Shown: positions 10,690 through 64,000 of the stretch, one piece after another | Layout of the letters: each line of letters opens with the position of its first letter | Numbering within the stretch: the first letter of the stretch is position 1 | NCBI GenBank assembly: GCA_025963715.1 | Contig: JAOQAG010000048.1 | Coordinates: 5,553-69,552, forward strand | Direction: 5' to 3' | DNA length: 64,000 nt | Source: Bacteroidota bacterium | GTDB taxonomy: Bacteria; Bacteroidota; Bacteroidia; 2-12-FULL-35-15 | Translations under genes and position numbers: made by a program | The notes under the pieces: model-generated | The model's input: only the letters and a program-made list of their open reading frames with translations | Told to the model about the DNA's origin: nothing | The model's database searches: none

Positions 10690-11871
10690 GTGGAGCAAGA
10701 GAAGGATTTTAAAATGATTGCCAAAACTATTTTTGGTTTGGAGGAAACGCTGTCGACCGAGCTATTGCGGCTGGGTGCAAAAAATGTGGAGATCCATAAC
10801 CGTGCGGTAAGCTTTGAAGGCGATACGGGCTTTATGTACAAAGCCAATTTGTGTTTGCGCACGGCATTGCGCATTCTTGTTCCGTTTGAAACGTTTAAAG
10901 TAACGGATGAAAAATCGCTGTATGCTTCCATGCAAAAAATCGATTGGGAAAAATACATGGATGTGACAGATACGCTGGCGATTGATACGGTGATCAATTC
11001 GGAATTGTTTACGCATTCACAATACATTTCGCAAAAATCAAAGGATGCTATTGTGGATCAGTTTCGTGCCAGGCATGGCGAGCGTCCGTCCGTAGATCTG
11101 GATAAACCAACCATTCGCATCAACATTCATATTTACAATGATACGTGCACGGTAGCGCTGGATAGCTCCGGAGAATCGCTGCACAAGCGTGGCTACCGCG
11201 ATAAAACCAATCTGGCACCGATCAACGAAGTGCTGGCTGCAGGTTTGGTATTGCTAAGCGGCTGGGACAAGCGTACCAATTTTATTGATCCGATGTGCGG
11301 TTCAGGAACAATTGTGATCGAAGCGGCATTGATCGCCAATAATATTCCGGCAGGTTATTTTCGTGAAGATTTCGGGTTTCAGCGCTGGCATAAATTTATG
11401 CCGTATAATGAGGAATTGTGGGACCTGATCTTTGATTCGGCGGTAAACAAAATTACAGATCATCAGCAAACCATTATCGGTGGTGAGCTTTCGAGCAACG
11501 TGGCAAAAAAAGCAAAAGAAAATGTGAAGCTGGCAAAGGTGGATGATGTGGTGGTGATCAAAAATGTGGACATGAAAGATTTTGAAGTGCCACCGGGAAG
11601 AGGCGTGGTTATTATCAATCCGCCGTATGGCGAACGGATGGTAAAAGATAATATTGATGAGCTTTATAAAATGATGGGGGATACATTCAAGAAAAATTTT
11701 TCAGGATACGATTGCTGGATCTTAAGTTCCAACCTGGATGCTTTGAAGAATGTAGGTTTGCGTCCGTCGAGGAAAATATCATTGTTCAACGGTCAGCTGG
11801 AATGTAAATTCATGAAATATGAAATGTACCAGGGGACGAAGAAGATTCATAAGTTGGAAAATAAGGAATAG
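10690..11871 (+). CDS. THUMP-domain class I SAM-dependent RNA methyltransferase (RlmL/COG0116-like)
   Basis: THUMP-like N-terminus, SAM-binding region 'DPMCGSGT', catalytic 'NPPYGER'. The start could instead be at 10714. Confidence 0.8.
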   Translation: MEQEKDFKMIAKTIFGLEETLSTELLRLGAKNVEIHNRAVSFEGDTGFMYKANLCLRTALRILVPFETFKVTDEKSLYASMQKIDWEKYMDVTDTLAIDTVINSELFTHSQYISQKSKDAIVDQFRARHGERPSVDLDKPTIRINIHIYNDTCTVALDSSGESLHKRGYRDKTNLAPINEVLAAGLVLLSGWDKRTNFIDPMCGSGTIVIEAALIANNIPAGYFREDFGFQRWHKFMPYNEELWDLIFDSAVNKITDHQQTIIGGELSSNVAKKAKENVKLAKVDDVVVIKNVDMKDFEVPPGRGVVIINPPYGERMVKDNIDELYKMMGDTFKKNFSGYDCWILSSNLDALKNVGLRPSRKISLFNGQLECKFMKYEMYQGTKKIHKLENKE

Positions 11872-12187
11872 TTTAAAGTTCAAGGTTTGAAAGTTTAAAG
11901 TTTGCTGTGTGGCTCCTGCGGAGCGGTTTTTACCACTAAGGCACTTAGGGCACTGAGAAAAAAAAAGAGAAAAAGAGATTTTGATGTGTGGATCGCTTAC
12001 GCGATTATTTTTTACCACGAAGCCGCAAAGAAAAATTGAAGCGTGTTTTTGTTTTTTTAATGTTTGGTCACAAACTGATACACATAATTCACACACAGAT
12101 TCGTTATTCGTTTAATTCGCTATTCGTTGTACACAGATTGGTATATTAGTATAAATTAGTATTTAGCAGATTCATAGAGTAGATTAT

Positions 12188-14333: not shown

Positions 14334-16979
14334 ATGAGTCGCACCACCCTTTTTGTTGATGTAATTTTACCTTTAGCGGTTCCGAATTTATATACCTATC
14401 GCGTTCCATTCGACTGGAACGAGTCGGTAATTGTCGGGCAGCGCGTGATCGTACAATTCGGAAAAGGAAAATTATATTCGGCGCTGGTGCGCAGAGTTCA
14501 TGAACAACCTCCCAAAATTTACGAAGCAAAATACATTGATTCCATTTTGGATGAGTATCCGATTGTGAACGAAACACAATTTGCGTTATGGGAATGGATC
14601 AGCCAGTATTATATGTGTACGATCGGTGAAGTGATGCAGGCGGCATTACCCGGCGGATTGCGGCTGGCAAGCGAAACAAAGATCATTCTTAATCCCTCGT
14701 TTAATAATCAATCGGAAACGGAGCGCCCGCAGATCTTGATTTCCGATAAGGAATATTTGATCATGGATGCGCTGGAGATCCGGCAGGTATTAAGCATCAG
14801 CGATGTGTCGGAAATCCTTGATCAGAAAACAGTATATCCTGTGATCAAAAACATGATCGAAAAAGGAATTGTACTGATCCAGGAAGAGCTGAAAGAAAAA
14901 TACAAACCGAAGATCGAAAGCTTCGTCCGCTTTACGGAGCATGCAGAGCAGGAGGAAAATTTAAAAACCATTTTTGATTCGCTGGAAAAAAAAGCATCCA
15001 AACAGCTGGATGTGGTAATGGCGTTTATCAAACTTTCCGGCAGGTATTCCAAACAGATCAACGAAGTAAAAAAATCGGAGATTGTAAAATTGGTGGAAGG
15101 CGCCGATGCAGCAATAAAAGGATTGGCTAAAAAAAATATTTTTGAAATATACGAACGTGAAGTGGGGCGATTTGCTGCATACACCGGCGAATCAAGGGAT
15201 ACGCATCTGAATGAAATTCAGCAGCAGGTTTTTGATTCGATTAATGCGCAGTTTTTTACCGGACAAAAAGAGCAAGCTGCTAAGGATGTTGTTTTATTAC
15301 ACGGTGTTACATCATCCGGTAAAACCGAAATTTACATCAAGCTGATCGAGCAGGCCATTGCGCAGGGAAAACAAGTGTTGTACCTGTTGCCGGAAATTGC
15401 GCTGACAACACAGATCATCAATCGCCTGCGAAAATATTTTGGCGATGTGGTGGGTGTGTATCATAGTAAGTTTAATGAAAATGAAAGAGTAGAAGTATGG
15501 AACAATGTATTAAAAAGTTCCAATGCGGAAGTTCCAATGCGGAAGTTGGATGAGCTAAATGCAGAAAAAAAAGTTCAAAGTTCAAAGTTCAAAGTTGACG
15601 AACTAAACGCAGAAAAAAATACAGGATCAAACACAGAAACTTTAAAGGTTGAACTTTCCAACTTTAAACTTGTTGTTGGTGCGCGTTCCGCATTGTTTTT
15701 GCCATTCAGTAATTTAGGATTGGTGATCGTGGATGAGGAACATGATTCGTCGTACAAACAATACGATCCGGCGCCGCGCTACAATGCCCGTGATGGCGCA
15801 ATTTACCTGGCGCATCTGCACAAAGCAAAAACATTATTGGGATCGGCAACGCCCAGCATCGAAAGTTATTTTAATGCGCTGGAAGGCAAATACGGTTTTG
15901 CCGAAATGACCAAGCGTTTTGGTGGAATCCAGATGCCGGAGATCTTAATTTCAGATGTAAAAGAAGCGACGAAAAGGAAACAGATGAAATCGCATTTTTC
16001 GCCGATGCTGCTCGATCATGTGACTGCTGCGCTGGAAAATAAAGAGCAGGTGATTTTATTTCAAAACCGCAGAGGATTTGCACCGCAGCTGGAATGCAAT
16101 ACCTGCGCATGGGTGCCGCAATGTGTGAATTGCGATGTGAGCTTAACGTATCACAAAGCAAGCAATCAGCTGCGTTGTCATTATTGCGGATATACTTCCA
16201 AACCACCTGTAAAATGTGCCGCCTGCGGCGATACAGAATTAAAAATGAAAGGTTTTGGTACGGAAAAAATAGAAGAAGAATTGTCGATCTTTTATCCTAA
16301 AGCAAAAATTATGCGGATGGATCTGGATACCACGCGCAGTAAATTTGCGCACCAGCATATCATCCAGGATTTTGAAGATGGTAACATCGATATTTTGGTG
16401 GGAACGCAAATGGTAACCAAAGGATTGGATTTTGATAACGTGAGTTTGGTCGGAATTTTAAATGCGGACGGGATGCTTAATTTTCCTGACTTCCGTGCAT
16501 ACGAGCGCAGTTACCAGCTGATGGCGCAGGTATCGGGCAGGGCAGGGCGAAAAAATAAACGGGGGAAAGTAATTATCCAAACACAAAATCCGGATCACAG
16601 CATTATTCAGGATGTGTGGAACAATAATTATTTATCCATGTATACCAATGAATTGCTCGACAGGCGGAATTTTAATTATCCGCCTTATTTCCGGATCATT
16701 GAGATCACGCTGATCCATCGCGATGTGAACATGGTGAATGAATCGGCAAAATATTTTGCCAATGAATTAAAACATCATTTCGGTAAACGTGTGCTGGGCC
16801 CCGAATTTCCTATTGTTGCACGCGTTCGTAATTTATACCATAAAAATATTTTATTGAAGATCGAGCGGGATGCTTCTGCCTTGCAGGCGAAAAAAATTGT
16901 AGCAGACCTGCTGGTAAAATTCAAAGTGAATCCGGATTTTAAATCGGTAAGAGTGCAAATGGATGTGGATCCAATGTAG
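14334..16979 (+). CDS. priA: Primosomal protein N' (PriA helicase) carrying an in-frame ~50-aa repeat-derived insertion
   Basis: Walker A 'GVTSSGKTE', 'DEEH' box, Cys-rich zinc-binding region 'CNTCAWVPQCVNCDVSLTYH...CHYCGY...CAACG'. The ORF opens with GTG at 14319, and the likely ATG is at 14334. Confidence 0.9.
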   Translation: MSRTTLFVDVILPLAVPNLYTYRVPFDWNESVIVGQRVIVQFGKGKLYSALVRRVHEQPPKIYEAKYIDSILDEYPIVNETQFALWEWISQYYMCTIGEVMQAALPGGLRLASETKIILNPSFNNQSETERPQILISDKEYLIMDALEIRQVLSISDVSEILDQKTVYPVIKNMIEKGIVLIQEELKEKYKPKIESFVRFTEHAEQEENLKTIFDSLEKKASKQLDVVMAFIKLSGRYSKQINEVKKSEIVKLVEGADAAIKGLAKKNIFEIYEREVGRFAAYTGESRDTHLNEIQQQVFDSINAQFFTGQKEQAAKDVVLLHGVTSSGKTEIYIKLIEQAIAQGKQVLYLLPEIALTTQIINRLRKYFGDVVGVYHSKFNENERVEVWNNVLKSSNAEVPMRKLDELNAEKKVQSSKFKVDELNAEKNTGSNTETLKVELSNFKLVVGARSALFLPFSNLGLVIVDEEHDSSYKQYDPAPRYNARDGAIYLAHLHKAKTLLGSATPSIESYFNALEGKYGFAEMTKRFGGIQMPEILISDVKEATKRKQMKSHFSPMLLDHVTAALENKEQVILFQNRRGFAPQLECNTCAWVPQCVNCDVSLTYHKASNQLRCHYCGYTSKPPVKCAACGDTELKMKGFGTEKIEEELSIFYPKAKIMRMDLDTTRSKFAHQHIIQDFEDGNIDILVGTQMVTKGLDFDNVSLVGILNADGMLNFPDFRAYERSYQLMAQVSGRAGRKNKRGKVIIQTQNPDHSIIQDVWNNNYLSMYTNELLDRRNFNYPPYFRIIEITLIHRDVNMVNESAKYFANELKHHFGKRVLGPEFPIVARVRNLYHKNILLKIERDASALQAKKIVADLLVKFKVNPDFKSVRVQMDVDPM
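15514..15672 (+). repeat. Repeat-derived in-frame insertion within priA (direct repeats 'gaagttccaatgcg' x2, 'gagctaaatgcagaaaaaaa' x2, 'aaagttcaaagttcaaagttcaaagtt')
   Basis: Sequence composition matches the intergenic 'aaagttcaaagtt' repeat family. It translates to 'SSNAEVPMRKLDELNAEKKVQSSKFKVDELNAEK...' between conserved helicase blocks. Confidence 0.7.
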
Positions 16980-17180: not shown

Positions 17181-17356
17181 TTTTATAGTGATGTTATTTT
17201 AAGCAAACATCCAGCATCCACACAGATTAGTACATTCGTATTTATTCGTAATTCGTAACCATTCAGATTCGTAGTTTCGTTTCTGTTCGTTATTCGTAAC
17301 AAAAAAACGGAGCAGCTCCAACAGCCGCTCCGCACTCACAAACCACCACCCAAATT

Positions 17357-22934: not shown

Positions 22935-23126
22935 ATCGAAATAGCAAATTTAAAATTAGTTTTCTAATAAACAGATCCCGTGTCGTAGCACGGGATGACG
23001 ATCTGCGATAATGATTTGATTTCTTATTTAGCAACCGCAGCGTCTGCGCCCAGCAAACTTTTGAACCTTGAACTTTGAACTTTTTTGCACACAGCAAAAC
23101 TTTAAACTTTTGAACTTTAAACTCCC

Positions 23127-28954: not shown

Positions 28955-29256
28955 ATCTACTAAATACTAATTAATACTAATATACCAATCTGTGTACAAC
29001 GAATAGCGAATTAAACGAATAACGAATCTGTGTGTGAATTATGTGTATCAGTTTGTGACCAAACATTAAAAAAACAAAAATCTATTTTACCTTCTTCGCG
29101 CCTTCGCGCCTTCGTGGTAAAAAATAATCGCGTAAGCGATATACACAGCAAAAACTCTTTTTTCTTCTTTCCTTCTCAGTGCCTTAGTGGTAAAAACCGC
29201 TCCGAAGGAGCACACACAGCAAACTTTGAACTTTAAACTTTAAACTTTGAACTTAT

Positions 29257-32972: not shown

Positions 32973-33422
32973 AAGAGAATTGTTTGGTTAGTGTAAGATC
33001 TGCTTTAAAAACGCCACAGGGCGCAATTAATCGCAATCGAGTGCACAAAGATACTGCGAATTTTAACGGCGCGGCAGAAAGCAGGGCGTGATAATATTCA
33101 CAACATATTAACTAAAAATAGTTCAAAGTTTAAAGTTCAAAAGTTTAATTTTGCTGTGCGGATAACGCCCGCCTGAACGATTCGGGCAGGAACAGGAACG
33201 AATATTACGAATCTGTGGATCTACTAAATACCAATTTGTACTAATATACTAATCTGTGTGGTATGGATAACGAACAGGAACAAAACTTCGAATCTGTGGA
33301 TCTACTAAATACCAATTTGTACTAATATACTAATCTGTGTGTTATACAGATAGCGAACAGAAATGAATATTACGAATCCGTGTGATACTGTGTGTGATTA
33401 ATTTAAAATTTGTTGTGTACAT

Positions 33423-39671: not shown

Positions 39672-40130
39672 ATAATTGATTGTTTCAATTTTTTGAAAGC
39701 ACTTTTCTCTAAGGAAAGTGCTTTTTCTTTTTAAAGAAGTTCAAAGTTTAAAGTTCAAAAGTTTAATTTTGCTGTACGGATAACGCCCGCCTGAACGATT
39801 CGGGCAGGAACAGGAACGAATATTACGAATCTGTATATCTACTATACTAATATTTACCAATATACTAATCGGTGTGTATTATCCGCTTTGCGTTTTTCTT
39901 TGCGCCTTCTTTGCGTTTTTGGCGTTTAGCTTTTTCTGCGTTTAGCGAACTTTGAACTTTAAACTTTTGAACTTTAAACTTATTTAGCTATTAACAATCT
40001 TTAGTTCGTAAAAACCGCTTTTCCAGCTTCGGCTTTTACCATTTTAACTCTTACTTCGTAAAGCCGGTTTGGCAACTTTGATCCCGATAGCTATCGGGAT
40101 TAAACTTTTGAACTTTAAACTAAAGAAAAG

Positions 40131-47189: not shown

Positions 47190-47531
47190 AAAATAGTTCA
47201 AAGTTTAAAGTTCAAAAGTTTAATCCCGATAGCTATCGGGATTGCTGGGTGGCTCCTTCGGAGCGTTTTTTACCACTAAGGCACTGAGAAAATACTAAGA
47301 AGGAAAAGAAGAAAAAGAGCTTTGCTGTACGTGTTCCTTCGGAACGTTTTTTACCACGAAGGCGCTAAGACGCGAAGGAAAGCAAAAAGATAATAAGTTT
47401 TTAACAGGCTTTGGTCACAAACTAAAAAAGCATAGTTCACACACAGATTGGTATATTAGTACTAATTAGTATTTAGTAGATCAGATCACACAGATTAGTA
47501 TATTGGTATAAATTAGTATTTAGTAGATATT
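47190..47531. repeat. Composite repeat mosaic separating the ABC ATPase and permease genes
   Basis: In order it contains 'aaagttcaaagtttaaagttcaaaagtttaa', the palindrome 'atcccgatagctatcgggat', two 'ggagcgttttttaccac.aaggc' units, the 'ggtcacaaactaaaaaagcatagttcacacacagattgg' module, and three 'cagattagtatattggtataaattagtatttagtaga' units. Confidence 0.8.
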
Positions 47532-54675: not shown

Positions 54676-54712
54676 CACAGGGTGCGCGGAGAAAAAAGAG
54701 TTTCACAGGGAA

Positions 54713-54748
54713 AAAAGAGCTTTACGTTTCATCGTAAAGCTCTTTTTT
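54713..54748 (+). terminator. Rho-independent terminator
   Basis: 'aagagctttacg tttcat cgtaaagctctt' followed by a T6 run. Confidence 0.75.
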
Positions 54749-54769: not shown

Positions 54770-55519
54770 TTACAATGTATTGTTGAGCAGTTTACCGCTC
54801 CCGATCAATTGCTGCAAATGGGGTTCGTACACTACTTCTTTCATCAGGTTAATGTGCCCCATGTGATGACAATCAGTGCCAAGGAAAGAGATCATGTTTT
54901 GTTCGATCATTTTTTCTGCCACTTTTTTTGTAGGCATGGAATAATAACCGGTAAGTGAATTGATGTTCATTTGCAGGAGCACGCCTTTATCAATAAAATC
55001 CTGGTATTTTTCAAATTCCATGTGCCAGAAATTGTACCGCTCCGGGTGCGCCAATACGGGGATGTAGCCCTGCAGCTGCATTTTAAAAATAACGTGGTAT
55101 AAATTATCAGGTGGATTTAAATAGGACACTTCAAACAATACATATTTTTTTTCGCCGAAGGTCAGTAATTTTTCATTTTCTATCTTACGTTCAAAATCAA
55201 AATCTACATAATATTCAGCAGCAGCGGATAGATCCAGGTTATTGTTGCTCTCTTTCAACGCAGCTTTTATGGGTTCCAGTCCTCCTAAAATAGTTTCGGG
55301 TGTGTTGCGGTAACCGTCGCTCATGATGTGCGGCGTGGTAATAATTTTTGAATAACCCATTGCCTGTAGCTCAGCAATCATACTAAGGCTGTCGTCCAGT
55401 CCTTTTGATCCATCATCCACATTGGGAACCAAATGAGAATGCACATCGCATTTTAATACCGATAGATCTACCGGAGTTTGAAGGCGTTTGTTTCTTTTGA
55501 AAATATCAAAAATTCCCAT
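54770..55519 (-). CDS. PHP-family tyrosine-protein phosphatase (CpsB/CapC-type)
   Basis: 'DVHSHLVPNVDDGSK', 'TPHI' His motifs of the PHP domain, 249 aa. Confidence 0.8.
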   Translation of the reverse strand: MGIFDIFKRNKRLQTPVDLSVLKCDVHSHLVPNVDDGSKGLDDSLSMIAELQAMGYSKIITTPHIMSDGYRNTPETILGGLEPIKAALKESNNNLDLSAAAEYYVDFDFERKIENEKLLTFGEKKYVLFEVSYLNPPDNLYHVIFKMQLQGYIPVLAHPERYNFWHMEFEKYQDFIDKGVLLQMNINSLTGYYSMPTKKVAEKMIEQNMISFLGTDCHHMGHINLMKEVVYEPHLQQLIGSGKLLNNTL

Positions 55520-55560
55520 TGTTTGTTTTTATTGGAGTAGTGAGTAAAAAAAGAATCAAG

Positions 55561-55693
55561 ATGCAAGAATCAAGACTTTGCGTGTATGCTGTGTTTGTTA
55601 TTGTTAGAATCAAGATGCAAGAATCAAGATGCTGTGTACATGCTGTGTTTAACACACCCCTGGCCCCTCTCAAGAGGGGAATTGATCCTGCTA
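55561..55693. repeat. Two ~50-bp tandem units 'agaatcaagatgcaagaatcaaga...gctgtgtttgtt' followed by the 'acacacccctggcccctctcaagaggggaattgatcctgcta' hairpin module
   Basis: Direct repetition is visible at 55561-55609 and 55613-55655. The hairpin is 'cccctctcaagagggg'. Confidence 0.75.
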
Positions 55694-55775
55694 ATGTTTA
55701 AATTCTAGTCCTTATTTGTAATTTTTTTAACAAGCACAGCAGACTTTAAACTGTTGATCCCGATAGCTATCGGAA

Positions 55776-56771
55776 TTAAACTTTGAACTTCCCTCTATTA
55801 AACCATTCGAGTGTATATTTTAATCCTTCCTCGATTTTTATTGCCGGGGCATATCCCAACATATTTTTTGCTTTGGAAATATCTGCGAGTGAATCGCGGA
55901 TATCGCCTGCACGCTCAGCGCGATAGGTTGGATTTACTGCTGATCCGGTCAGATCTTTTAACGTATTGATCAATTTGTTCAATGAAATGCGATCACCGAC
56001 AGCGATGTTAAAAATATCGCCCTGCGTATTTGCAATTGGTGTAAGCATTGCTTTAACATTGGCTTGTACGGCATTGGCAACAAAAGTAAAATCGCGTGTT
56101 TGTTCGCCGTCGCCGTTAATTGCCGGTGCCTGGTCATTTAACAATGCGTTTATGAATAACGGGATCGCGGCAGCGTATTCGCCTTTCGGATTTTGTCGCG
56201 GCCCGAAAATATTAAAATAACGCAAGCCTACAATTTCCATGTTGTAAGTTTTGGCGAAAATTTCGCCGTACAGTTCATTCGTCATTTTTGAAACGGCATA
56301 GGGCGAAAGCAAGCGTCCCACCTGGTGTTCCACTTTCGGAAGAATAGGACTATCGCCGTAAACGGAAGATGAGCTGGCATACACTACACGTTTTACTTTT
56401 GCATCGCGTGCAGCGATAAGCATGTTTACAAAACCGGTTGCATTTACATTGTGTGTGGCAATCGGATTTAAAATAGAGCGGGGCACAGAACCCAATGCTG
56501 CCTGGTGAAACACATAATCCACACCGGCGCATGCTTTGCTGCAATCATCCGGGTTACAAATGTCGCCTTTGATGAATTGAAAATTTGGTAATGACAAAAA
56601 AGGCTGAATGTTATCTTCAAAGCCGGTGGAAAGATTATCGAGCACCACTACTTTTCCGGCTTTGTATTTAAACAGATATTCCACAATGTTGGAGCCGATA
56701 AAACCGGCACCACCCGTTACTAAAAACGTTTTGCCGGTAAGGTCTGCTGTATGAAATGGAGTAGTATACAT
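55776..56771 (-). CDS. NAD-dependent nucleotide-sugar 4-epimerase (WbpP/TviC/CapI-like)
   Basis: 'GGAGFIGSN' Rossmann motif, the catalytic 'YAVSK' YxxxK motif, 331 aa. Confidence 0.75.
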   Translation of the reverse strand: MYTTPFHTADLTGKTFLVTGGAGFIGSNIVEYLFKYKAGKVVVLDNLSTGFEDNIQPFLSLPNFQFIKGDICNPDDCSKACAGVDYVFHQAALGSVPRSILNPIATHNVNATGFVNMLIAARDAKVKRVVYASSSSVYGDSPILPKVEHQVGRLLSPYAVSKMTNELYGEIFAKTYNMEIVGLRYFNIFGPRQNPKGEYAAAIPLFINALLNDQAPAINGDGEQTRDFTFVANAVQANVKAMLTPIANTQGDIFNIAVGDRISLNKLINTLKDLTGSAVNPTYRAERAGDIRDSLADISKAKNMLGYAPAIKIEEGLKYTLEWFNRGKFKV

Positions 56772-56786
56772 GTCCGTTAAATTGAA

Positions 56787-57836
56787 TTATCGTTTGGTGT
56801 ATTGTTGTTCGTAATACTTTTTATAATCACCGGAAGTTACATTGTTCAGCCATTCTTCATTCTGAAGATACCATTCCACTGTTTTTTCCAATCCTTCTTC
56901 AAACTGCAATGATGGAGTCCAGCCCAATTCTTTTTGCAGTTTTGTAGAATCGATCGCGTAACGCAAATCGTGTCCGGCACGGTCTTTCACAAATGTGATG
57001 AGTTTTGCGGATTCTCCTTGTGCACGGTTTAATTTCTTGTCCATTATTTTACATAACAACCGGATCAGGTCGATGTTGGTCCATTCATTATGCCCGCCGA
57101 TGTTATACGTTGTTCCGGTTTTTGCGTTGTGAAAGATCACATCGATGGCGCGTGCATGATCTTCTACAAACAGCCAATCGCGAACGTTTTCGCCTTTTCC
57201 GTAGATCGGGATGGATTTATTGTTCTTGATATTGTAAATAGAAAGCGGAATTAATTTTTCCGGAAAATGGTAACTGCCGTAATTATTGGAGCAGTTGGAG
57301 ATCACTACATCCATGCCGTATGTATCGTGGTAGGCTCTTACAAAATGGTCGGAGCTGGCTTTTGATGCGGAGTAGGGACTGTGCGGATCGTATGCGGTTG
57401 TTTCGGTAAACATGCCGGTTTCGCCTAATGTTCCATATACTTCATCTGTGGAAACGTGGTAAAAACGGTTGTTTGGAGCAGCAGTCCAATTTGCTTTTGC
57501 TGCATTTAATAAATTCACGGTACCGATCACGTTGGTCATTACAAATTCCAATGGATTGGAAATGCTTCTGTCTACGTGGCTTTCGGCGGCAAGGTGAATG
57601 ACTGCATCAAATTTATGCGTGGCAAATAAATCGCTGATAAATGCTGCATCCACAATATCGCCTTTTACAAATGTGTAATTGGATTTGTTTTCGATGTCTT
57701 TTAAATTCGCAAGATTGCCTGCGTAGGTTAGCTTATCCAGGTTTACGACCTGGTAATCCGGGTATTTATTTACAAATAACCGTACTACGTGTGATCCGAT
57801 GAATCCGGCGCCGCCGGTGATTAAAATCTTTTTCAT
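56787..57836 (-). CDS. rfbB: dTDP-glucose 4,6-dehydratase
   Basis: 'MKKILITGGAGFIGSHVV', 'HVSTDEVYG', 'YSASKASSDHFVRAY', 349 aa. Confidence 0.85.
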   Translation of the reverse strand: MKKILITGGAGFIGSHVVRLFVNKYPDYQVVNLDKLTYAGNLANLKDIENKSNYTFVKGDIVDAAFISDLFATHKFDAVIHLAAESHVDRSISNPLEFVMTNVIGTVNLLNAAKANWTAAPNNRFYHVSTDEVYGTLGETGMFTETTAYDPHSPYSASKASSDHFVRAYHDTYGMDVVISNCSNNYGSYHFPEKLIPLSIYNIKNNKSIPIYGKGENVRDWLFVEDHARAIDVIFHNAKTGTTYNIGGHNEWTNIDLIRLLCKIMDKKLNRAQGESAKLITFVKDRAGHDLRYAIDSTKLQKELGWTPSLQFEEGLEKTVEWYLQNEEWLNNVTSGDYKKYYEQQYTKR

Positions 57837-57870
57837 TAATGTATCTGCTAAATACTAATTATTACTAATA

Positions 57871-58170
57871 TACTAATCTGTGTTGTCTACTAAATACGAA
57901 TTATTACTAATGTACCAATCTGTGTGTAACACACCCCTGGCCCCTCTCAAGAGGGGAATTGATCCTGCTATACTAATCTGTGTTGTCTACTAAATACGAA
58001 TTACTACTAATGTACCAATCTGTGTGTAACACACCCCTAGCCCCTCTCAAGAGGGGAATTGATCCTGCTATACTAATCTGTGTTGTCTACTAAATACGAA
58101 TTATTACTAATGTACCAATCTGTGTGTAACACACCCCTAGCCCCTCTCAAGAGGGGAATTGATCCTGCTA
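57871..58170. repeat. Tandem array: 3 copies of a 100-bp unit ('tactaatctgtgttgtctactaaatacgaatta.tactaatgtaccaatctgtgtgtaacacacccct.gcccctctcaagaggggaattgatcctgcta')
   Basis: Units start at 57871, 57971 and 58071 with 1-2 substitutions per copy. Each ends in the 'cccctctcaagagggg' hairpin. Confidence 0.9.
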
Positions 58171-58254
58171 ATGTTTAAATTTTAGTGCTTATTATAATTT
58201 CTTTTTTAACAAACACAGCAAACTTTGAACTTTAAACTTTTGAACTTTGAACTA

Positions 58255-59544
58255 TTACAGGCTCCAGTAATTCAAATTTTTAATTTTCCCTTTTAAAATT
58301 CCTTTAATGTCTACTAAAATTCCACCTTCCGAAAGGATGGAGGTATAATATTTTTCATCCAGTGTTAAATAATCTTTGTGATTTACGGCAACCACCACCG
58401 CATCGTAACCTTTGCCAACGCTGGCTGCCAGCCCGAAACCGTATTCGTGATTTAATTCTGCTGAATCTGCATACGGATCAACAATATCCACATGTACGCC
58501 GAATGATTTAAATTCCTTGATCACATCCGCTACTTTTGAATTACGGATATCGCTTACATTTTCTTTGAAAGTGGCACCCATCACCAATACACGTGATTCG
58601 GAAATATTTTTCTTAGCTGCAATTATTTTTTTAACGGTTTGTTTCGCTACGTAAAATCCCATAGAGTCGTTTACGTAACGGCCCGAATTGATCACGCGTG
58701 CATGATATCCCAGCTCTTCCGCTTTATACGTTAAATAATACGGGTCTACGCCGATGCAATGGCCGCCTACCAAACCCGGCGAGAATTTAAGAAAATTCCA
58801 TTTTGTTCCTGCAGCTTCCAGTACATCATAGGTGTTGATACCGATGCGGCTGAAAATAATGGAAAGCTCGTTCATCAATGCAATGTTAACATCGCGCTGT
58901 GTGTTCTCAATAATTTTCGCAGCTTCTGCAACTTTGATGGATGCAGCTTTGTACACGCCGGGCTCTACAATTATTTTATAGGTTTCTGCAATTACTTCCA
59001 GTGATTCTTCATCGCAGCCGGAAACAACTTTTAAGATCTTTGTGATCGTATGTTCTTTATCGCCCGGGTTGATGCGCTCCGGCGAATAACCAACTTTAAA
59101 ATCGGTTTTGAATTTTAATCCCGACATTTCTTCTAACACCGGGATACAATCTTCTTCGGTACAACCGGGATACACGGTGGATTCATATACCACGTAATCG
59201 CCTTTTTTCAAAGCTTTACCTACGGAGCGGGATGCGCCCAGCAGCGGTTTCAGATCCGGTAAATTGTGTTCGTCAATAGGAGTTGGAACAGCTACAATAA
59301 AAAAATTGGCTTGTCGCAACACCTCAATGGAAGCGGTAAATTCAATGTCGCAATTCTCAAAATCGGTTGCTTCCAGCTCCTGTGAAGGATCAACGTGATT
59401 CTGCATCATTTTTACACGTTCTTCATTAATGTCGAAGCCGATCACTTTTACTTTTTTCGCAAAAGCCAAAGCAATTGGTAATCCAACGTAACCAAGTCCG
59501 ATGACTGCAATTTTCGCTTCTTTGTTTTTTATTTTATCAATCAT
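58255..59544 (-). CDS. Nucleotide-sugar dehydrogenase (UDP-N-acetyl-D-glucosamine/mannosamine 6-dehydrogenase, WbpA/TviB/WecC-like)
   Basis: 'KIAVIGLGYVGLPIA' at an internal Met (start taken at about 59544), central 'GGHCIG' catalytic Cys region. Confidence 0.8.
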   Translation of the reverse strand: MIDKIKNKEAKIAVIGLGYVGLPIALAFAKKVKVIGFDINEERVKMMQNHVDPSQELEATDFENCDIEFTASIEVLRQANFFIVAVPTPIDEHNLPDLKPLLGASRSVGKALKKGDYVVYESTVYPGCTEEDCIPVLEEMSGLKFKTDFKVGYSPERINPGDKEHTITKILKVVSGCDEESLEVIAETYKIIVEPGVYKAASIKVAEAAKIIENTQRDVNIALMNELSIIFSRIGINTYDVLEAAGTKWNFLKFSPGLVGGHCIGVDPYYLTYKAEELGYHARVINSGRYVNDSMGFYVAKQTVKKIIAAKKNISESRVLVMGATFKENVSDIRNSKVADVIKEFKSFGVHVDIVDPYADSAELNHEYGFGLAASVGKGYDAVVVAVNHKDYLTLDEKYYTSILSEGGILVDIKGILKGKIKNLNYWSL

Positions 59545-59768
59545 AAAGGAGATGTTAGATGTTAGACATGAGATGTTAGATTTGATACTGAACATCTCAG
59601 GATCTTATTCTTTATTTATAATTTTATTTTTGTTTTAAATTTTCTATTCCCGTTATAATAATCAATCAGCATCATTTTCAAATTTTCAAATCAGCACATT
59701 TTCAAATTGCTTTTCATCTGCACATCAGTAATCAATCTTCACCATTTTCAAATTGATTAATTTTCAAA

Positions 59769-60803
59769 TCATCCCTTCCTGTTTTCTTTTCTCAAGGCAT
59801 AAATCCGTTCAATAATGTCCACTACTTTCAGGCCTTCCATCGCATTGGTGGTAATGGCTGTTCTGCCTTTGAGCGTATCAATTACATTTTCAATTACCTG
59901 CGGATGATTATTGGCGGAGCCTTTGTAAGCGCCATAATCATTTGCTTCATTGGTAGGTGCCAGATCCGGCAGCGTATAATCTTTAATGTTGCATTGCTCC
60001 ACCTGGTCCATGTATTGTCCGCCTACTTTTACGCTTCCTTTGCTGCCGATGATCGTGAGGCTGCTTTCCAGGTTGCTGTTCCAAACAGCGGTGGAATAAT
60101 TGATGCTTCCCATGCCGCCATTCGCGAAATTGAAATTCACAAATCCACTGTCCTCAAAATCCGTAAGTGCAGCATGGTTAAAATCATTGAATTTTGCCTG
60201 GATGTCTTTCAGATCGCCAAACAGCCAGTACATAATATCAATGAAATGCGAGAATTGTGTAAAAAGTGTTCCGCCATCCAACTCCTGTGTGCCTTTCCAG
60301 CCACCTTTTTTATAATAACGCTCATCGCGGTTCCAATAGCAATTGAGCTGTACCATGTACACATCGCCAATGATCTTATTTTCCACAATGTTTTTTAACC
60401 AGATGGAAGGTGGTGAAAAACGATTTTGCATCACACAAAACACATTTTTATTGACGCGTAATGCTTTAAAAATAACGGCTTCACAATCAGCTTTACTTAA
60501 AGCCATTGGCTTTTCGCATACAATGTGCTTGTTAGCTTCCAGCGCAGCTAAAGAGTGTTGTGCGTGCAATCCGTTAGGCGTACAAATATTGATCACTTCC
60601 ACTTCCGGATGCGCTGTAAGCATCTCTTCCATGGAAGCATAAAAATCCTCTTTCAATTCCGAAAGCCCCAGTTGTTCTTTGGACGCGACATCGCATACTG
60701 CCACTAATTCTGCTTCCGGGTTTCTGCGGATCATTTCTGCATGGCGCTTACCAATGTGGCCTTGCCCGATGACTGCAAATTTTATTTTATTATTTAAGTT
60801 CAA
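59769..60803 (-). CDS. Gfo/Idh/MocA-family oxidoreductase (WbpB-like UDP-sugar 3-dehydrogenase candidate)
   Basis: 'KFAVIGQGHIGKRH' Rossmann motif. Apparent TTG start at 60803 lies inside an 'aaagtt' repeat block. Confidence 0.7.
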   Translation of the reverse strand: MNLNNKIKFAVIGQGHIGKRHAEMIRRNPEAELVAVCDVASKEQLGLSELKEDFYASMEEMLTAHPEVEVINICTPNGLHAQHSLAALEANKHIVCEKPMALSKADCEAVIFKALRVNKNVFCVMQNRFSPPSIWLKNIVENKIIGDVYMVQLNCYWNRDERYYKKGGWKGTQELDGGTLFTQFSHFIDIMYWLFGDLKDIQAKFNDFNHAALTDFEDSGFVNFNFANGGMGSINYSTAVWNSNLESSLTIIGSKGSVKVGGQYMDQVEQCNIKDYTLPDLAPTNEANDYGAYKGSANNHPQVIENVIDTLKGRTAITTNAMEGLKVVDIIERIYALRKENRKG

Positions 60804-60885
60804 AGTTTAAAGTTTAAAAGTTCAAAGTAAGTTCAAAGTAAGTTCAAAGTTTAAAGTTCAAAAGTTTAATTTTGCTGTGTGTAAA
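60795..60885. repeat. Expanded 'aagttcaaagt/aaagtttaaagttcaaaagtttaa' simple-repeat block
   Basis: 'ttaagttcaaagtttaaagtttaaaagttcaaagtaagttcaaagtaagttcaaagtttaaagttcaaaagtttaattttgctgtgtg'. Confidence 0.85.
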
Positions 60886-60988
60886 ACAAAACATTTTACT
60901 GCAAATTCATTTTTGTTTACTTCTTTCTTTTTACTTTTTTTATTTATCTATTGTCTACTGCCAATTGCCAACTGTTATTCCCAATTCC

Positions 60989-61564
60989 TTAATCAATCAA
61001 TTTCGTGATTTTTCCATTTTCCAATTTATACTTTTCCTTACTTTCTTCGCATTCTGCAATTCCGTTTGCATCAAATTTTAAGCGGTGTCCGTATTCGCTG
61101 ATCCAGCCCATTTGTTTCGCCGGATTGCCAACCCATAATGAATAAGGCTGTACGTTTTTTGTAACCACTGCACCAGCGCCAATAAAAGCATATTCGCCAA
61201 TATCATGTCCGCATACAATAGTAGCGTTTGCACCGATGGATGCACCTTTGCCAACATGTGTTTTTGCATATTCGTTTTTGCGGTTGATAGCGCTGCGCGG
61301 GTTGATCACGTTGGTAAATACCATGGATGGCCCCAGGAACACATCATCATCGCAGGTAACGCCGGTATAAATGGAAACATTGTTTTGCACTTTCACATTT
61401 TTTCCCAACACCACTTCCGGCGAGATCACTACGTTTTGTCCGATGTTGCAATTTTCACCCAGCACACAATTAGGCATGATGTGTGAAAAATGCCAGATCT
61501 TAGTGCCTTTGCCGATGGTACAGCCGGGGTCGATGATCGCGGTTTCGTGTGAAAAATATTCCAT
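60989..61564 (-). CDS. Left-handed beta-helix (hexapeptide) acetyltransferase (WbpD-like UDP-sugar N-acetyltransferase candidate)
   Basis: Hexapeptide repeats ('IGKGTKIW', 'LGENCNIGQNVVI', 'IGANATI'). Start at internal Met 'MEYFSHETAII', because the upstream part of the ORF lies in repeat sequence. Confidence 0.7.
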   Translation of the reverse strand: MEYFSHETAIIDPGCTIGKGTKIWHFSHIMPNCVLGENCNIGQNVVISPEVVLGKNVKVQNNVSIYTGVTCDDDVFLGPSMVFTNVINPRSAINRKNEYAKTHVGKGASIGANATIVCGHDIGEYAFIGAGAVVTKNVQPYSLWVGNPAKQMGWISEYGHRLKFDANGIAECEESKEKYKLENGKITKLID

Positions 61565-61681
61565 TTGTGATGTTGCTAATTTTAATAATTTTTCTTTGGT
61601 ACGGATAACAAACAGGAACGAATATTGCGTCCCGATAGCTATCGGGGCTGTGTGGTTACTGTGTTTTATTTGCTGTGTTTT

Positions 61682-61815
61682 ACACACCCCTGGCCCCTCT
61701 CAAGAGGGGAATGCATCCTGCACCAATTTATTATTAGATTATTATTTCTGATTTTCATTTAAAACTAAAATTCCAAAATTAGTAGTATCAAATTCCCCTC
61801 TTGAGAGGGGTTAGG
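61682..61815. repeat. Inverted pair of the 'acacacccctggcccctctcaagagggg' module flanking a 70-bp AT-rich spacer
   Basis: 61682-61713 and its reverse complement at 61784-61815. Confidence 0.8.
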
Positions 61816-61894
61816 GGTGTGTTCTTGTTTCTTTCTGTTACCAATCAATTTTAATAATCCGTCTACTAACAACCAACTACTAACAACTCCAAAC

Positions 61895-62863
61895 TCAAAA
61901 CTGTCTATGTTCCGTTTTATTCAATTCCTCTTTCGATAACGATTTAAAATAATCGTAGGTGATCTTTAATCCTTCTGCACGGCCAACTTTTGGTTCCCAG
62001 CCTAAAATGGCTTTTGCTTTTGTAATGTCCGGTTTGCGTTGTTTGGGATCATCCTGCGGCAAGGGCAATGAAATTAATTTTTGTTTGGTACCGGTTAATT
62101 TGATGATCTCTTCACCAAATTCTTTGATCGTGATCTCGCTTGGATTACCGATGTTCATTGGCTGCACATAATCACTCATCAACAAGCGGTAAATGCCTTC
62201 CACCAAATCATCTACATAACAGAATGAGCGGGTTTGAGAGCCATCGCCGAACATGGTAAGGTCTTCTCCGCGCAACGCCTGGCCAATAAATGCAGGCAGT
62301 ACACGACCGTCATTCAGGCGCATGCGTGGCCCGTATGTGTTAAAGATCCGGATGATGCGGGTTTCCAGTCCGTGGTGTGTATGATATGCCATGGTTATCG
62401 CTTCCATAAAACGTTTTGCTTCATCGTATACACCGCGTGGGCCAACAGTATTTACATTACCCAGGTATTCTTCTGTTTGCGGGTGTACAAGCGGATCGCC
62501 GTACACTTCGGAAGTAGAGGCAACGAGGATGCGCGCTTTTTTTACACGTGCTAATCCTAATAAATTATGCGTTCCAAGCGAGCTTACTTTCAATGTCTGG
62601 ATCGGAATTTTTAAATAATCAATGGGAGATGCAGGCGATGCAAAATGCAGGATATAATCCAGTTCGCCGGGAACGAATACAAATTTGGAAACATCATGAT
62701 GGTAAAATTCAAAATGTTCCAGCTTCATCAAATGCTCAATATTTTTAAGATCGCCCGTAATTAAATTATCCATGCCGATCACGTGGTATCCTTCTTTGAT
62801 AAAACGGTCGCAAAGATGTGAACCTAAAAAACCTGCAGCACCTGTAATTAAAATTCGTTTCAT
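61895..62863 (-). CDS. UDP-glucuronate decarboxylase (UDP-xylose synthase)
   Basis: '[20 protein letters not shown]', 'YDEAKR' catalytic motif, 322 aa. Confidence 0.85.
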
Positions 62864-62955
62864 AAAATTTGTTCGTTTGTACGTTGTCGTGTTTATAATC
62901 GATCCATAAAAAAACGTCTTTTACAATGTTGATGAAAGTAAAAGACGCTTCATTT

Positions 62956-64000
62956 TTATTTTACATTTTCCCGGCCGATGCTGTAATACGTGTAACCCAG
63001 TTCTTTCATCTGGTCGATGCCGTATAAATTACGTCCGTCGAAGATCACTTTGTTTTTTAACAACCCGCTTACTTTATCAAAATCCGGAGTGCGGAACAAT
63101 CCCCATTCCGTTGCGATCAGCAAAGCATCGGCATCGCGCAAAGCATCGTATTCATCTTTTGCATACGTGATCGCATTGCCTTTCAGTGCCTGCACATTGT
63201 TCATTGCTTCCGGGTCGTAAGCGGTAACGGTTGCACCTGCCTCGATCAGTTCATCGATCAGGTATAAAGCCGGAGCTTCACGAATATCGTCGGTATCCGG
63301 CTTGAACGCCAATCCCCACAATGCTATTTTTTTGCCTTTTAAATCGTTGTTGAAATGTGCTTTGATGCGTGGAATGATGATGGTTTTTTGTTTGTCGTTC
63401 ACATCCATCACTGCATCTAAAATTTTGAAATCGTATTTTGCTTCGGCCGCTGATTTTGCCAATGCCTGCACATCTTTTGGAAAACAGCTACCGCCGTATC
63501 CAATTCCCGGAAACAGGAAACGCTTGCCAATACGGTCGTCGGAGCCAATACCAATGCGAACGGAATCGACATCAGCACCCAACAGCTCGCACAAATTCGC
63601 GATCTCGTTCATGAAGGTGATCTTGGTCGCTAAAAATGCGTTGGCTGCATATTTGGTAAGCTCCGCGGATTTTTCATCCATAAAAATAATTGGATTTCCC
63701 TGGCGTACATACGGTTTGTACAGCTCTTCCATTGTTTTACGCGCTTTTTCGGATGAGGTACCGATCACAACCCTGTCCGGTTTTAAAAAATCATCCACGG
63801 CAAAACCTTCGCGTAAAAATTCAGGATTGGAAACAATATCAAATTCCACTTTCGCATTTTTTGCTACCGCTTCACGCACTTTGTCGGCTGTTCCAACCGG
63901 TACGGTGCTTTTATCCACAATTACTTTATAATCTTTGATGATCTTTCCCAGGTCGTTTGCAACGCCAAGGATGTAGCTCAGGTCGGCAGATCCGTCCTCA
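62956..64000 (-). CDS. ugd: UDP-glucose 6-dehydrogenase, N-terminally truncated by the window edge
   Basis: 'GGSCFPKD' catalytic Cys motif, UDPG_MGDP_dh C-terminal domain. The frame is open through position 64000. Confidence 0.85.
   Translation of the reverse strand, partial: EDGSADLSYILGVANDLGKIIKDYKVIVDKSTVPVGTADKVREAVAKNAKVEFDIVSNPEFLREGFAVDDFLKPDRVVIGTSSEKARKTMEELYKPYVRQGNPIIFMDEKSAELTKYAANAFLATKITFMNEIANLCELLGADVDSVRIGIGSDDRIGKRFLFPGIGYGGSCFPKDVQALAKSAAEAKYDFKILDAVMDVNDKQKTIIIPRIKAHFNNDLKGKKIALWGLAFKPDTDDIREAPALYLIDELIEAGATVTAYDPEAMNNVQALKGNAITYAKDEYDALRDADALLIATEWGLFRTPDFDKVSGLLKNKVIFDGRNLYGIDQMKELGYTYYSIGRENVK

Follow-up and report, generated by a model that had tools for sequence, protein, structure and literature searches.

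A REP-like palindromic repeat in a Bacteroidota nucleotide-sugar locus and its candidate DUF559 nuclease partner

Here, we analyzed a 64,000-nt stretch of contig JAOQAG010000048.1 of a Bacteroidota bacterium (hereafter, the window), which ends in a minus-strand cluster of nucleotide-sugar genes. Several spacers of this cluster carry copies of a short repeat with a CCCCTC/GAGGGG hairpin, which elsewhere, in genomes from many phyla, brackets a gene for a protein of the DUF559 family. In the direction of transcription, the cluster starts with ugd, the UDP-glucose 6-dehydrogenase gene (62956-64000, with the 5′ part beyond the window end), followed by uxs, encoding a UDP-xylose synthase (UXS)/ArnA-like short-chain dehydrogenase/reductase (61895-62863; 322 aa), the gene for a WbpD/NeuD-like hexapeptide-repeat acetyltransferase (AcT; 60989-61564), and gfo, encoding a Gfo/Idh/MocA oxidoreductase that is WbpB-like by context (59769-60803; the TTG start at 60803 is uncertain). 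The next genes encode a TviB/WbpO-like UDP-GlcNAc 6-dehydrogenase (here tviB; 58255-59544), the dTDP-glucose 4,6-dehydratase RfbB (56787-57836; 349 aa; TIGR01181, 478 bits against a cut-off of 365), a TviC/WbpP-like NAD-dependent 4-epimerase (here tviC; 55776-56771; 331 aa; NF011728, 331 bits, below the equivalog cut-off) and a CpsB-type PHP phosphatase (54770-55519; 249 aa; PF19567, 9.8e-47). These assignments, made with Pfam and NCBIfam, uphold the gene identities and the nucleotide-sugar character of the cluster given in a preliminary description of this DNA, and the lack of rfbA, rfbC and rfbD noted there holds at the locus itself.

Two of the genes have longer open reading frames (ORFs) that call for correction. 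The longest ORF of the tviB-like gene extends to 59595, and a GTG-started version of the acetyltransferase ORF reaches 61687, where it would run into a repeat copy. Judging from the relatives, in which the TviB-like protein consists of 429 aa and the acetyltransferase of 189-192 aa, translation probably starts at the ATG codons at 59544 and 61564, respectively, so that the acetyltransferase ORF to 61687 is likely spurious and, more generally, the long versions of both genes that enter the repeats are probably not real. A canonical intrinsic terminator (minus strand, 62906-62951; 14-bp stem followed by U7; −16.5 kcal/mol, z-score −4.1) lies 5 nt past the ugd stop codon; ugd is thus probably not co-transcribed with the seven downstream genes, and what had been described as one operon would comprise at least two transcription units. 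A bidirectional canonical terminator (54711-54748; 16-bp perfect arms and U6; −22.8 kcal/mol, z −5.2) lies between cpsB and the convergent upstream gene and closes the cluster. The GC content of the locus (0.408 vs 0.413) is unremarkable, and the spacers in this genome are long as a rule, with a median of 151 nt.

The core of the repeat, CCCCTCTCAAGAGGGG, occurs in the window at six sites (55664, 57941, 58041, 58141, 61694 and, inverted, 61795), all within 55,664-61,810, with a chance expectation of 0.01; the corresponding 12 strand-matches were reached by no shuffle. No further copies were detected in the 64-kb window, even with the non-hairpin part, ACACCCCTNNCCCC, as the query and 2 mismatches allowed, a search that returned the same six sites. 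One copy (M1, AACACACCCCTGGCCCCTCTCAAGAGGGGAATT; 55651-55683, plus strand) is a singleton in the tviC-cpsB spacer and reads AATTCCCCTCTTGAGAGGGGCCAGGGGTGTGTT on the minus, that is, the mRNA strand. Three copies on the plus strand (M2, 57928-57960; M3, 58028-58060; M4, 58128-58160) belong to a tandem array in the tviB-rfbB spacer (57869-58170, plus strand), which consists of 3.0 copies of a 100-nt unit with 98% identity, each unit being composed of a ACTAATCTGTGT/TACTAAATAC-type repeat and then one hairpin element. The remaining two form a tail-to-tail inverted pair in the uxs-AcT spacer, the left one on the plus strand (M5, 61681-61712) and the right one in the inverted, minus orientation (M6, 61791-61823), with 31-nt arms (61682-61712 and 61792-61822) that are 94% complementary and 79 nt apart. 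The singleton, the array and the inverted pair thus lie where the preliminary description had placed them, but the statement that every spacer carries the hairpin was too broad, given that only these 3 of the 7 locus spacers do. The module is absent from the rfbB-tviC (15 nt), gfo-tviB, AcT-gfo and ugd-uxs spacers, and the module-free spacers of the locus hold other low-complexity repeats (AAGTTCAAAG, AGATGTT, ATTTTCAA) or, after ugd, the canonical terminator.

Local copying involved more than the core, because segments of ~110 nt around M1 (55643-55752) and at 58120-58231, both on the plus strand, are ~90% identical between the tviC-cpsB and tviB-rfbB spacers. The non-hairpin half of the 100-nt unit belongs to the ACTAATCTGTGT/TACTAAATAC repeat family (17223-17300, 33190-33382 and 57844-57925, with periods of 41, 81 and 42 nt), which elsewhere in the window occurs without the hairpin. 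A separate palindrome, CCCGATAGCTATCGGG, is found in two of the three module-bearing spacers (55759-55775 and 61630-61648), and a copy of it interrupts the element in one of the other genomes surveyed (L037; ACACCCCCTTTCCCGATAGCTATCGGGACTCTCAAGAGGGG); it may represent another small family of palindromic repeats. The only public contig with the exact RfbB of the window (L117, Logan SRR13312996, 2203 nt) stops 41 nt upstream of rfbB and 101 nt past the epimerase gene; both ends fall within repeat-bearing spacers, which implies that short-read assemblies of the source organism break at these repeats. An exact-protein look-up returned no record for the TviB-like protein of the window.

The closest homologues of RfbB, ~90% identical, come from uncultured Bacteroidia, and three related loci on long contigs (L128, L130 and L132) retain the gene order of the window, with a DegT aminotransferase gene upstream of ugd. 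Across 17 kb of these three loci, neither the element nor even the bare hairpin is present. Their called spacers measure 0-152 nt, compared with 92-418 nt for six of the seven spacers in the window (the seventh is the 15-nt one). Orthologous loci had been proposed as a test of the modules; with 0 of 3 relatives carrying any copy, the modules appear to be recent, lineage-specific additions on which the locus does not depend. As a separate observation, the spacers of the relatives host small, unrelated ORFs (L128: 4324-4677; L130: 1540-1854 and 3362-3805), including a gene that encodes a four-helix-bundle protein (23S_rRNA_IVP) and separates uxs from the acetyltransferase gene, as well as DUF6036 and DUF7957 ORFs around ugd. 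The spacers of this conserved cluster seem to be places where both repeats and small accessory genes land.

The repeat is far from restricted to this lineage. An exact-pattern scan with CCCCTNNCCCCTCTCAAGAGGGG of species representatives, one genome per species, identified at least 116 loci, 80 of which were listed, with 145 copies. Alignment of these copies defines a conserved unit of ~33 nt, (A)ACACA-CCCCT-NN-CCCCTC-TCAA-GAGGGG-AA(T), in which an unpaired ACACA “head” is followed by CCCCT, by ~2 nt of free linker and by a hairpin with the 6-bp stem CCCCTC/GAGGGG and the loop TCAA (or TCGA/TCTA). The unit is sharply bounded, the flanks outside (A)ACACA...GAGGGGAA(T) being unrelated from genome to genome; a head-anchored search additionally recovered variants with linkers of 1-4 nt, the loops TCAA, TCGA, TCTA and TTAA, and a long form with ~20 nt before the hairpin. 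About four fifths of the 80 listed loci belong to Bacteroidota (Mucilaginibacter, Flavobacterium, Lutibacter, Parabacteroides, Phocaeicola, Chitinophagales), and 16 do not: the latter include the anammox Planctomycetota Ca. Brocadia, with the complete genome of Ca. Brocadia pituitae, and Ca. Jettenia, as well as Nitrospirae, Thermodesulfovibrionia, Patescibacteria, Desulfobacterales and, among Gammaproteobacteria, Thiomargarita, Agitococcus and Lysobacterales. Several metagenome-assembled genomes (MAGs) contain several of the listed loci each. An exact-pattern scan of viral contigs yielded 10 stretches on 8 contigs, so that the repeat is rare there; blastn of a 34-mer against plasmid and phage collections gave no match, a search in which the low-complexity filter may have masked the query.

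The placement of the copies is that of a generic extragenic repeat. Intergenic regions harbor 132 of the 145 copies; between co-directional genes, 45 are in one orientation and 32 in the other, and a further 20 lie between convergent gene ends and 9 between divergent starts, which makes a strand-specific RNA signal unlikely. By arrangement, 192 copies comprise 77 solo elements, 32 head-to-head pairs, 12 tail-to-tail pairs and 21 direct neighbors or arrays. The 148 flanking ORFs match 193 Pfam families other than DUF559, only a handful of them polysaccharide genes, and the 25 commonest families of these ORFs include no transposase. In Chitinophagales MAGs, for instance, the element lies within the znuA-ABC and iscS-nifU gene pairs, and in the closest relative that carries it (L050), between a Glu/Leu/Phe/Val dehydrogenase gene and a NusB-domain gene. 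The L050 copy shares the extended unit and the CTAATCTGTGT and AATTGATCCTGC flanks with the window, and a ACTAATCTGTGT/TACTAAATAC repeat adjoins the element there as well. In several genomes (L010: 2812-2850; L011: 3417-3455; L040; and others), the element ends 7-14 nt before an ATG codon, with the GAGGGGAA tail in the Shine-Dalgarno position, which could be either incidental or a case of exaptation.

These data bear on the earlier proposal that the hairpins could be RNase-processing or attenuation sites and, in a wider form that also includes 3′-end stabilizers, on the idea that they are dedicated RNA signals that evolved to provide for differential expression within the operon. In the window, five of the six copies share the same orientation relative to transcription, the modules lie between genes that look co-transcribed, and the inverted pair, if transcribed by read-through, would fold into a ~33-bp duplex (−65 kcal/mol, z −9), a plausible substrate for RNase III. 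In Escherichia coli, repetitive extragenic palindromic (REP) elements stabilize the upstream mRNA. Furthermore, GTAG-type REP arrays flank exopolysaccharide genes in Thauera (PMC3733652). However, the inverted pair (61678-61826) is the only strongly structured part, with predicted folding energies of −65 kcal/mol on the minus strand (z −9) and −71 kcal/mol on the plus strand (z −11). A single module, a 6-bp stem with a 4-nt loop, yields z-scores of only −0.6 to −1.3 against shuffled sequences when folded with 20-nt flanks, and has no U-tract on either strand; compared with the z-scores of −4 to −5 for the real terminators of the window, such values indicate that the module is not an intrinsic terminator. 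A scan for sigma-70 promoter and terminator consensus sequences produced counts not above those in shuffled sequence, none of them coinciding with the modules, and no Rfam 15 family reached its gathering score anywhere in the window; the only sub-threshold match, a plant miRNA model on the inverted pair (25.6 bits against a cut-off of 100), was dismissed as spurious.

The stem itself does not behave as a conserved RNA structure. Its arms, CCCCTC and GAGGGG, are identical in 170 of the 197 head-anchored copies and mostly register-shifted in the rest, with the variation falling in the loop and the linker, and practically no compensatory changes were detected among these copies, so that it is the sequence that is conserved, not the fold. 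Dedicated processing or attenuation sites are therefore an unlikely explanation, contradicted by a generic repeat that occurs in both orientations beside 193 unrelated gene families, occupies 3 of the 7 spacers of the locus and is missing from the three same-order orthologous loci. The preliminary description had itself allowed that equal frequency in unrelated loci would reveal the modules as generic repeats, and, as far as genome sequences can tell, this is what is found. An incidental effect at the RNA level is nevertheless possible, the best candidate being the two inverted copies in the uxs-AcT spacer, with their predicted duplex.

The inverted pair also invites two other explanations. 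It could be an invertible promoter (61682-61822) that phase-varies the downstream genes from the acetyltransferase gene to cpsB: 31-nt inverted repeats surround 79 nt upstream of polysaccharide genes, and the pair encloses a Bacteroidetes-type −7 box (TAATTTTG) that faces the downstream genes and is the sole such box in the locus spacers. However, one TAnnTTTG in ~1.5 kb of AT-rich spacer is about what chance provides, a properly spaced −33 TTTG is lacking, no recombinase gene is found among the locus genes, and the relatives have no such inverted pair. Moreover, its arms are ordinary members of the family, in which tail-to-tail gaps are often 17-51 nt, too short to invert. We consider this possibility hardly credible. 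Alternatively, the modules could be MITEs (transposable elements of the miniature inverted-repeat type), or else terminal inverted repeats standing alone, that go back to a conventional insertion sequence (IS) with a DDE transposase, in keeping with the MITE-like anatomy of the 141-bp doublet with its 31-nt arms and with the breakage of short-read assemblies at these spacers. Yet the flanks at 61673-61681 and 61823-61831 show no sign of a target-site duplication, singletons prevail together with direct tandem copies (of the four occurrences in the window, a single one is an inverted doublet), neither a DDE transposase nor a parent IS was found among the recurrent neighbors, and the only gene enclosed by inverted copies is one for a 125-aa DUF559 protein. 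A MITE origin thus appears highly improbable.

This gene was an unexpected finding. All-against-all clustering of 768 ORFs from the census loci revealed one small family, of ~125-aa proteins, encoded right beside the element in 12 loci, and tblastn raised this number to 17 of the at least 116 element-selected loci; with 9 members, it is also the only recurrent family among the 148 flanking ORFs. The protein belongs to DUF559 (PF04480; E-values of 1e-27 to 1e-31; 96-107 bits against a cut-off of 20.6), and the nearest solved structure is that of an “endonuclease-like protein” from Neisseria (PDB 3hrl; E 7.7e-16). The predicted nuclease-type residues are conserved, with D57, E68 and H74 invariant and D70 present in 9 of 10 aligned sequences. 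The geometry is constant: an inverted copy (...GAGGGG-NN-AGGGGTGTGT) is located 9-90 nt upstream of the ATG codon, and a direct copy (ACACACCCCT...) either overlaps the stop codon or comes after it. Indeed, among 120 protein-selected homologues, 92 terminate inside the repeat, with ...HTPNPSQEGN or ...THP* (ACA CAC CCC TAA) as their C-terminus, so that the 3′ copy is part of the DUF559 gene; in the others, the repeat lies a few nt downstream or is read in the third frame. The C-terminus ...DTPLTPLKRG, considered as a variant of the repeat, turned out to be the canonical element in another frame.

Homologues of the DUF559 protein form more than 3,600 clusters at E ≤ 1e-10, and curated libraries name it only “DUF559 domain-containing protein”. 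Three distant relatives (34-38% identity), recovered in a scan of proteins from viral contigs, lack the repeat, and the repeat-linked subfamily is absent from the plasmid collection, where tblastn gave only cyanobacterial matches at 36-38%. In Arenibacter and marine metagenomes (L118-L127), an identical DUF559 unit is present in 1, 2 or 3 tandem bracketed copies, depending on the assembly; in Arenibacter, its locus is fixed, always between two housekeeping genes, those for an MgsA-like AAA ATPase and a rhomboid protein. Judging from these assemblies, the variation in copy number appears to reflect unequal recombination or slippage, with the unit amplifying in place and not hopping. In a single case (L136: 2048-2944), a tyrosine recombinase (Phage_integrase) gene is directly downstream of a bracketed DUF559 unit, and Phage_int_SAM_5 accounts for two matches among the 148 neighbor ORFs.

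Taken together, we consider it likely that the modules of the nucleotide-sugar locus are not a regulatory device but generic REP-like repeats, dispersed over many phyla, that elsewhere bracket a DUF559 gene whose product would act on them. The identity and distribution of the repeat, its lack of a strong orientation preference, its absence from the orthologous loci and its physical association with DUF559 are shown by the data; the action of DUF559 on the repeat and the way the copies spread are inferred. By analogy with the REP-associated tyrosine transposases (RAYTs), which serve REPs and their hairpin-forming doublets (REPINs), the DUF559 protein would recognize the repeat and drive or maintain its multiplication. 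We further suggest, more tentatively and with somewhat less than even confidence, that the element represents an undescribed REP-like superfamily spanning many phyla, the partner of which is a Vsr-like PD-(D/E)XK protein of the DUF559 family in place of a HUH tyrosine transposase. In this lineage, the repeat would have inserted into three long, AT-rich spacers of a nucleotide-sugar cluster that is otherwise conserved and would then have been amplified locally, giving rise to the array of three 100-nt units, the ~110-nt segment copied between two spacers and the one tail-to-tail doublet. The DUF559 nuclease would recognize the repeat, as a sequence or as a hairpin, and nick or cleave it, and host repair, recombination or replication slippage would then keep and multiply the copies; any effects on mRNA decay, processing or polarity would be by-products. 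The repeats at the polysaccharide locus are best seen as passengers.

Several observations weigh against this interpretation. Within the window, the element is significantly clustered, occupying 3 of the 7 locus spacers versus 0 of 46 outside, and could accordingly be read as locus-specific; we attribute the clustering to local copying, because ~110-nt flanks are common to two of the spacers and because elsewhere, too, the family typically clusters locally and amplifies in tandem. The apparent invariance of the sequence is inflated, given that 145 of the 197 copies were picked by an exact 21-nt pattern. The DUF559 gene is absent from the window, with no coding remnants beside the repeat copies (tblastn), so that the copies in the window are non-autonomous. 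Finally, the Arenibacter gene stays at one locus; it might just as well be a passenger, or a homing gene with the repeat as its target.

The last point leads to the most serious competitor, namely, that the DUF559 gene encodes a free-standing, homing-type endonuclease that targets, or hitch-hikes in, pre-existing head-to-head dimers, and that the repeats spread otherwise, through recombination, replication slippage or an unknown transposase. Within the PD-(D/E)XK proteins, DUF559 shares a clade with Vsr and the group I intron homing endonuclease I-Bth0305I (PMC3424549), and a weak PADLOC match to a homing endonuclease points in the same direction. Furthermore, the gene is always located between two heads, the head-to-head dimers without the gene (24 of 32, with gaps of 14-103 nt) could be empty sites, and the locus in Arenibacter is fixed. 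Conversely, in most homologues the 3′ repeat is fused to the stop codon or the C-terminus, and little distance separates the 5′ copy from the ATG codon, which suggests long co-evolution as opposed to opportunistic insertion, and no alternative mobilizing enzyme was found among the neighbor ORF families. We regard homing as the less probable explanation, with perhaps a modest chance of being correct, although the data do not separate it from a DUF559 protein that multiplies the repeat.

For the polysaccharide locus, these results remove a tempting over-interpretation: the hairpins are generic repeats, selfish or neutral, and do not constitute a regulatory code. On a broader scale, REP-type repeats have so far been explained by RAYT transposases, with some, such as the CGTC-tagged REPs, left without a known enzyme, and a near-identical, cross-phylum repeat that brackets a DUF559 gene is a testable candidate for a second partnership between a repeat and an enzyme. 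If correct, it would mean that populations of REP-type repeats can arise by a second route with a different mechanism, and it would assign a first functional role to a large subfamily of DUF559 proteins. DUF559 being a very common domain of unknown function, its pairing with the repeat supplies a hypothesis on this function.

The lineage also possesses a second and much commoner class of intergenic repeats. Runs of AGTTCAAAGTTTAA-type repeats of 7/15 nt occur in many spacers throughout the window, often adjoining gene starts or stops (1623-1655, 11870-11904, 15570-15596, 23060-23083, 29221-29254, 33120-33148, 39737-39981, 47195-47223, 58220-58253 and 60796-60866), and similar runs are found in spacers of the related loci L128 and L130.

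Among known systems, the invertible promoters of Bacteroides capsular loci resemble the inverted pair in that, in a member of Bacteroidota, a short segment located upstream of polysaccharide genes is enclosed by an inverted repeat; the differences are that the repeat here is generic, that the locus has no recombinase, that the −7 box is at chance level and that the orthologous loci lack the pair. The Correia elements and similar MITEs of Neisseria are intergenic inverted repeats whose transcribed duplexes can undergo processing by RNase III or act as promoters or terminators, with incidental consequences for the adjacent genes. They have defined terminal inverted repeats, a TA target duplication and a narrow host range. 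The repeat described here likewise has an inverted, intergenic arrangement and would yield a long duplex if transcribed, but singletons dominate, and no target duplication is seen.

The partner protein is closest to the clade of Vsr, DUF559 and I-Bth0305I (PMC3424549; PDB 3hrl, 1cw0, 3r3p), with which it shares the PF04480 and 3hrl matches and the conserved acidic and histidine residues. Vsr pairs with a Dcm-type cytosine methyltransferase and is specific for T:G mismatches; for the bracketed protein, no such partner was seen, given that the 25 commonest families of the ORFs beside the element include no methyltransferase, although no systematic search was made. Unlike I-Bth0305I, the protein is not encoded in an intron. 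A Dcm/Vsr interpretation of the linker (CCTGG to CCTAG to CCTAA) was rejected, given that all dinucleotides occur there. As judged from open-access papers and bioRxiv, no association with dispersed repeats has been described for this protein, and no paper was found that ties either the motif or DUF559 to such repeats. The CGTC-tagged REPs (PMC3733652) are similarly short, palindromic and intergenic, are found in Bacteroidetes and other phyla, and have no known RAYT partner; they differ in having an 8-9-bp stem and a CGTC head, compared with the 6-bp CCCCTC stem and ACACA-CCCCT head described here, and in that no dedicated transposase is known for them, whereas the present family has a candidate partner gene.

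The closest parallel is with the REP/REPIN-RAYT systems. REP families have a GTAG or CGTC tetranucleotide head and form predominantly head-to-head dimers, frequently tail-to-tail dimers and also clusters (PMC3733652). Like these, the present repeat is an extragenic palindrome of 20-40 nt, one end of which carries a short, conserved head that is unpaired, located between co-directional as well as convergent genes; it forms singletons, head-to-head and tail-to-tail dimers and tandem clusters, and its inverted copies bracket a small gene, usually at a single locus. This similarity in size, extragenic location, head and dimer types raises the question of whether we are dealing with an ordinary REP/REPIN family moved by a RAYT, an IS200-like Y1/HUH transposase, encoded elsewhere, with the link to DUF559 being coincidental. 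That appears very unlikely: the head is not of the GTAG or CGTC type, Y1_Tnp (PF01797) is not among the 25 commonest families of the 148 neighbor ORFs, a search that covered neighbors and not whole genomes, and the coupling to DUF559 involves 17 of the at least 116 element-selected loci and at least 77% of the protein-selected homologues. The present repeat also differs from the REP systems in that a single core extends across phyla, whereas REP families are usually lineage-specific, and in that the stem shows no compensatory variation. Ultimately, because its head is ACAC(A), as opposed to GTAG or CGTC, and the gene it brackets encodes a DUF559 protein of the PD-(D/E)XK fold, as opposed to a HUH/Y1 transposase, the repeat is not a classical member of the REP-RAYT family, even though it is REP-like in the way it works.

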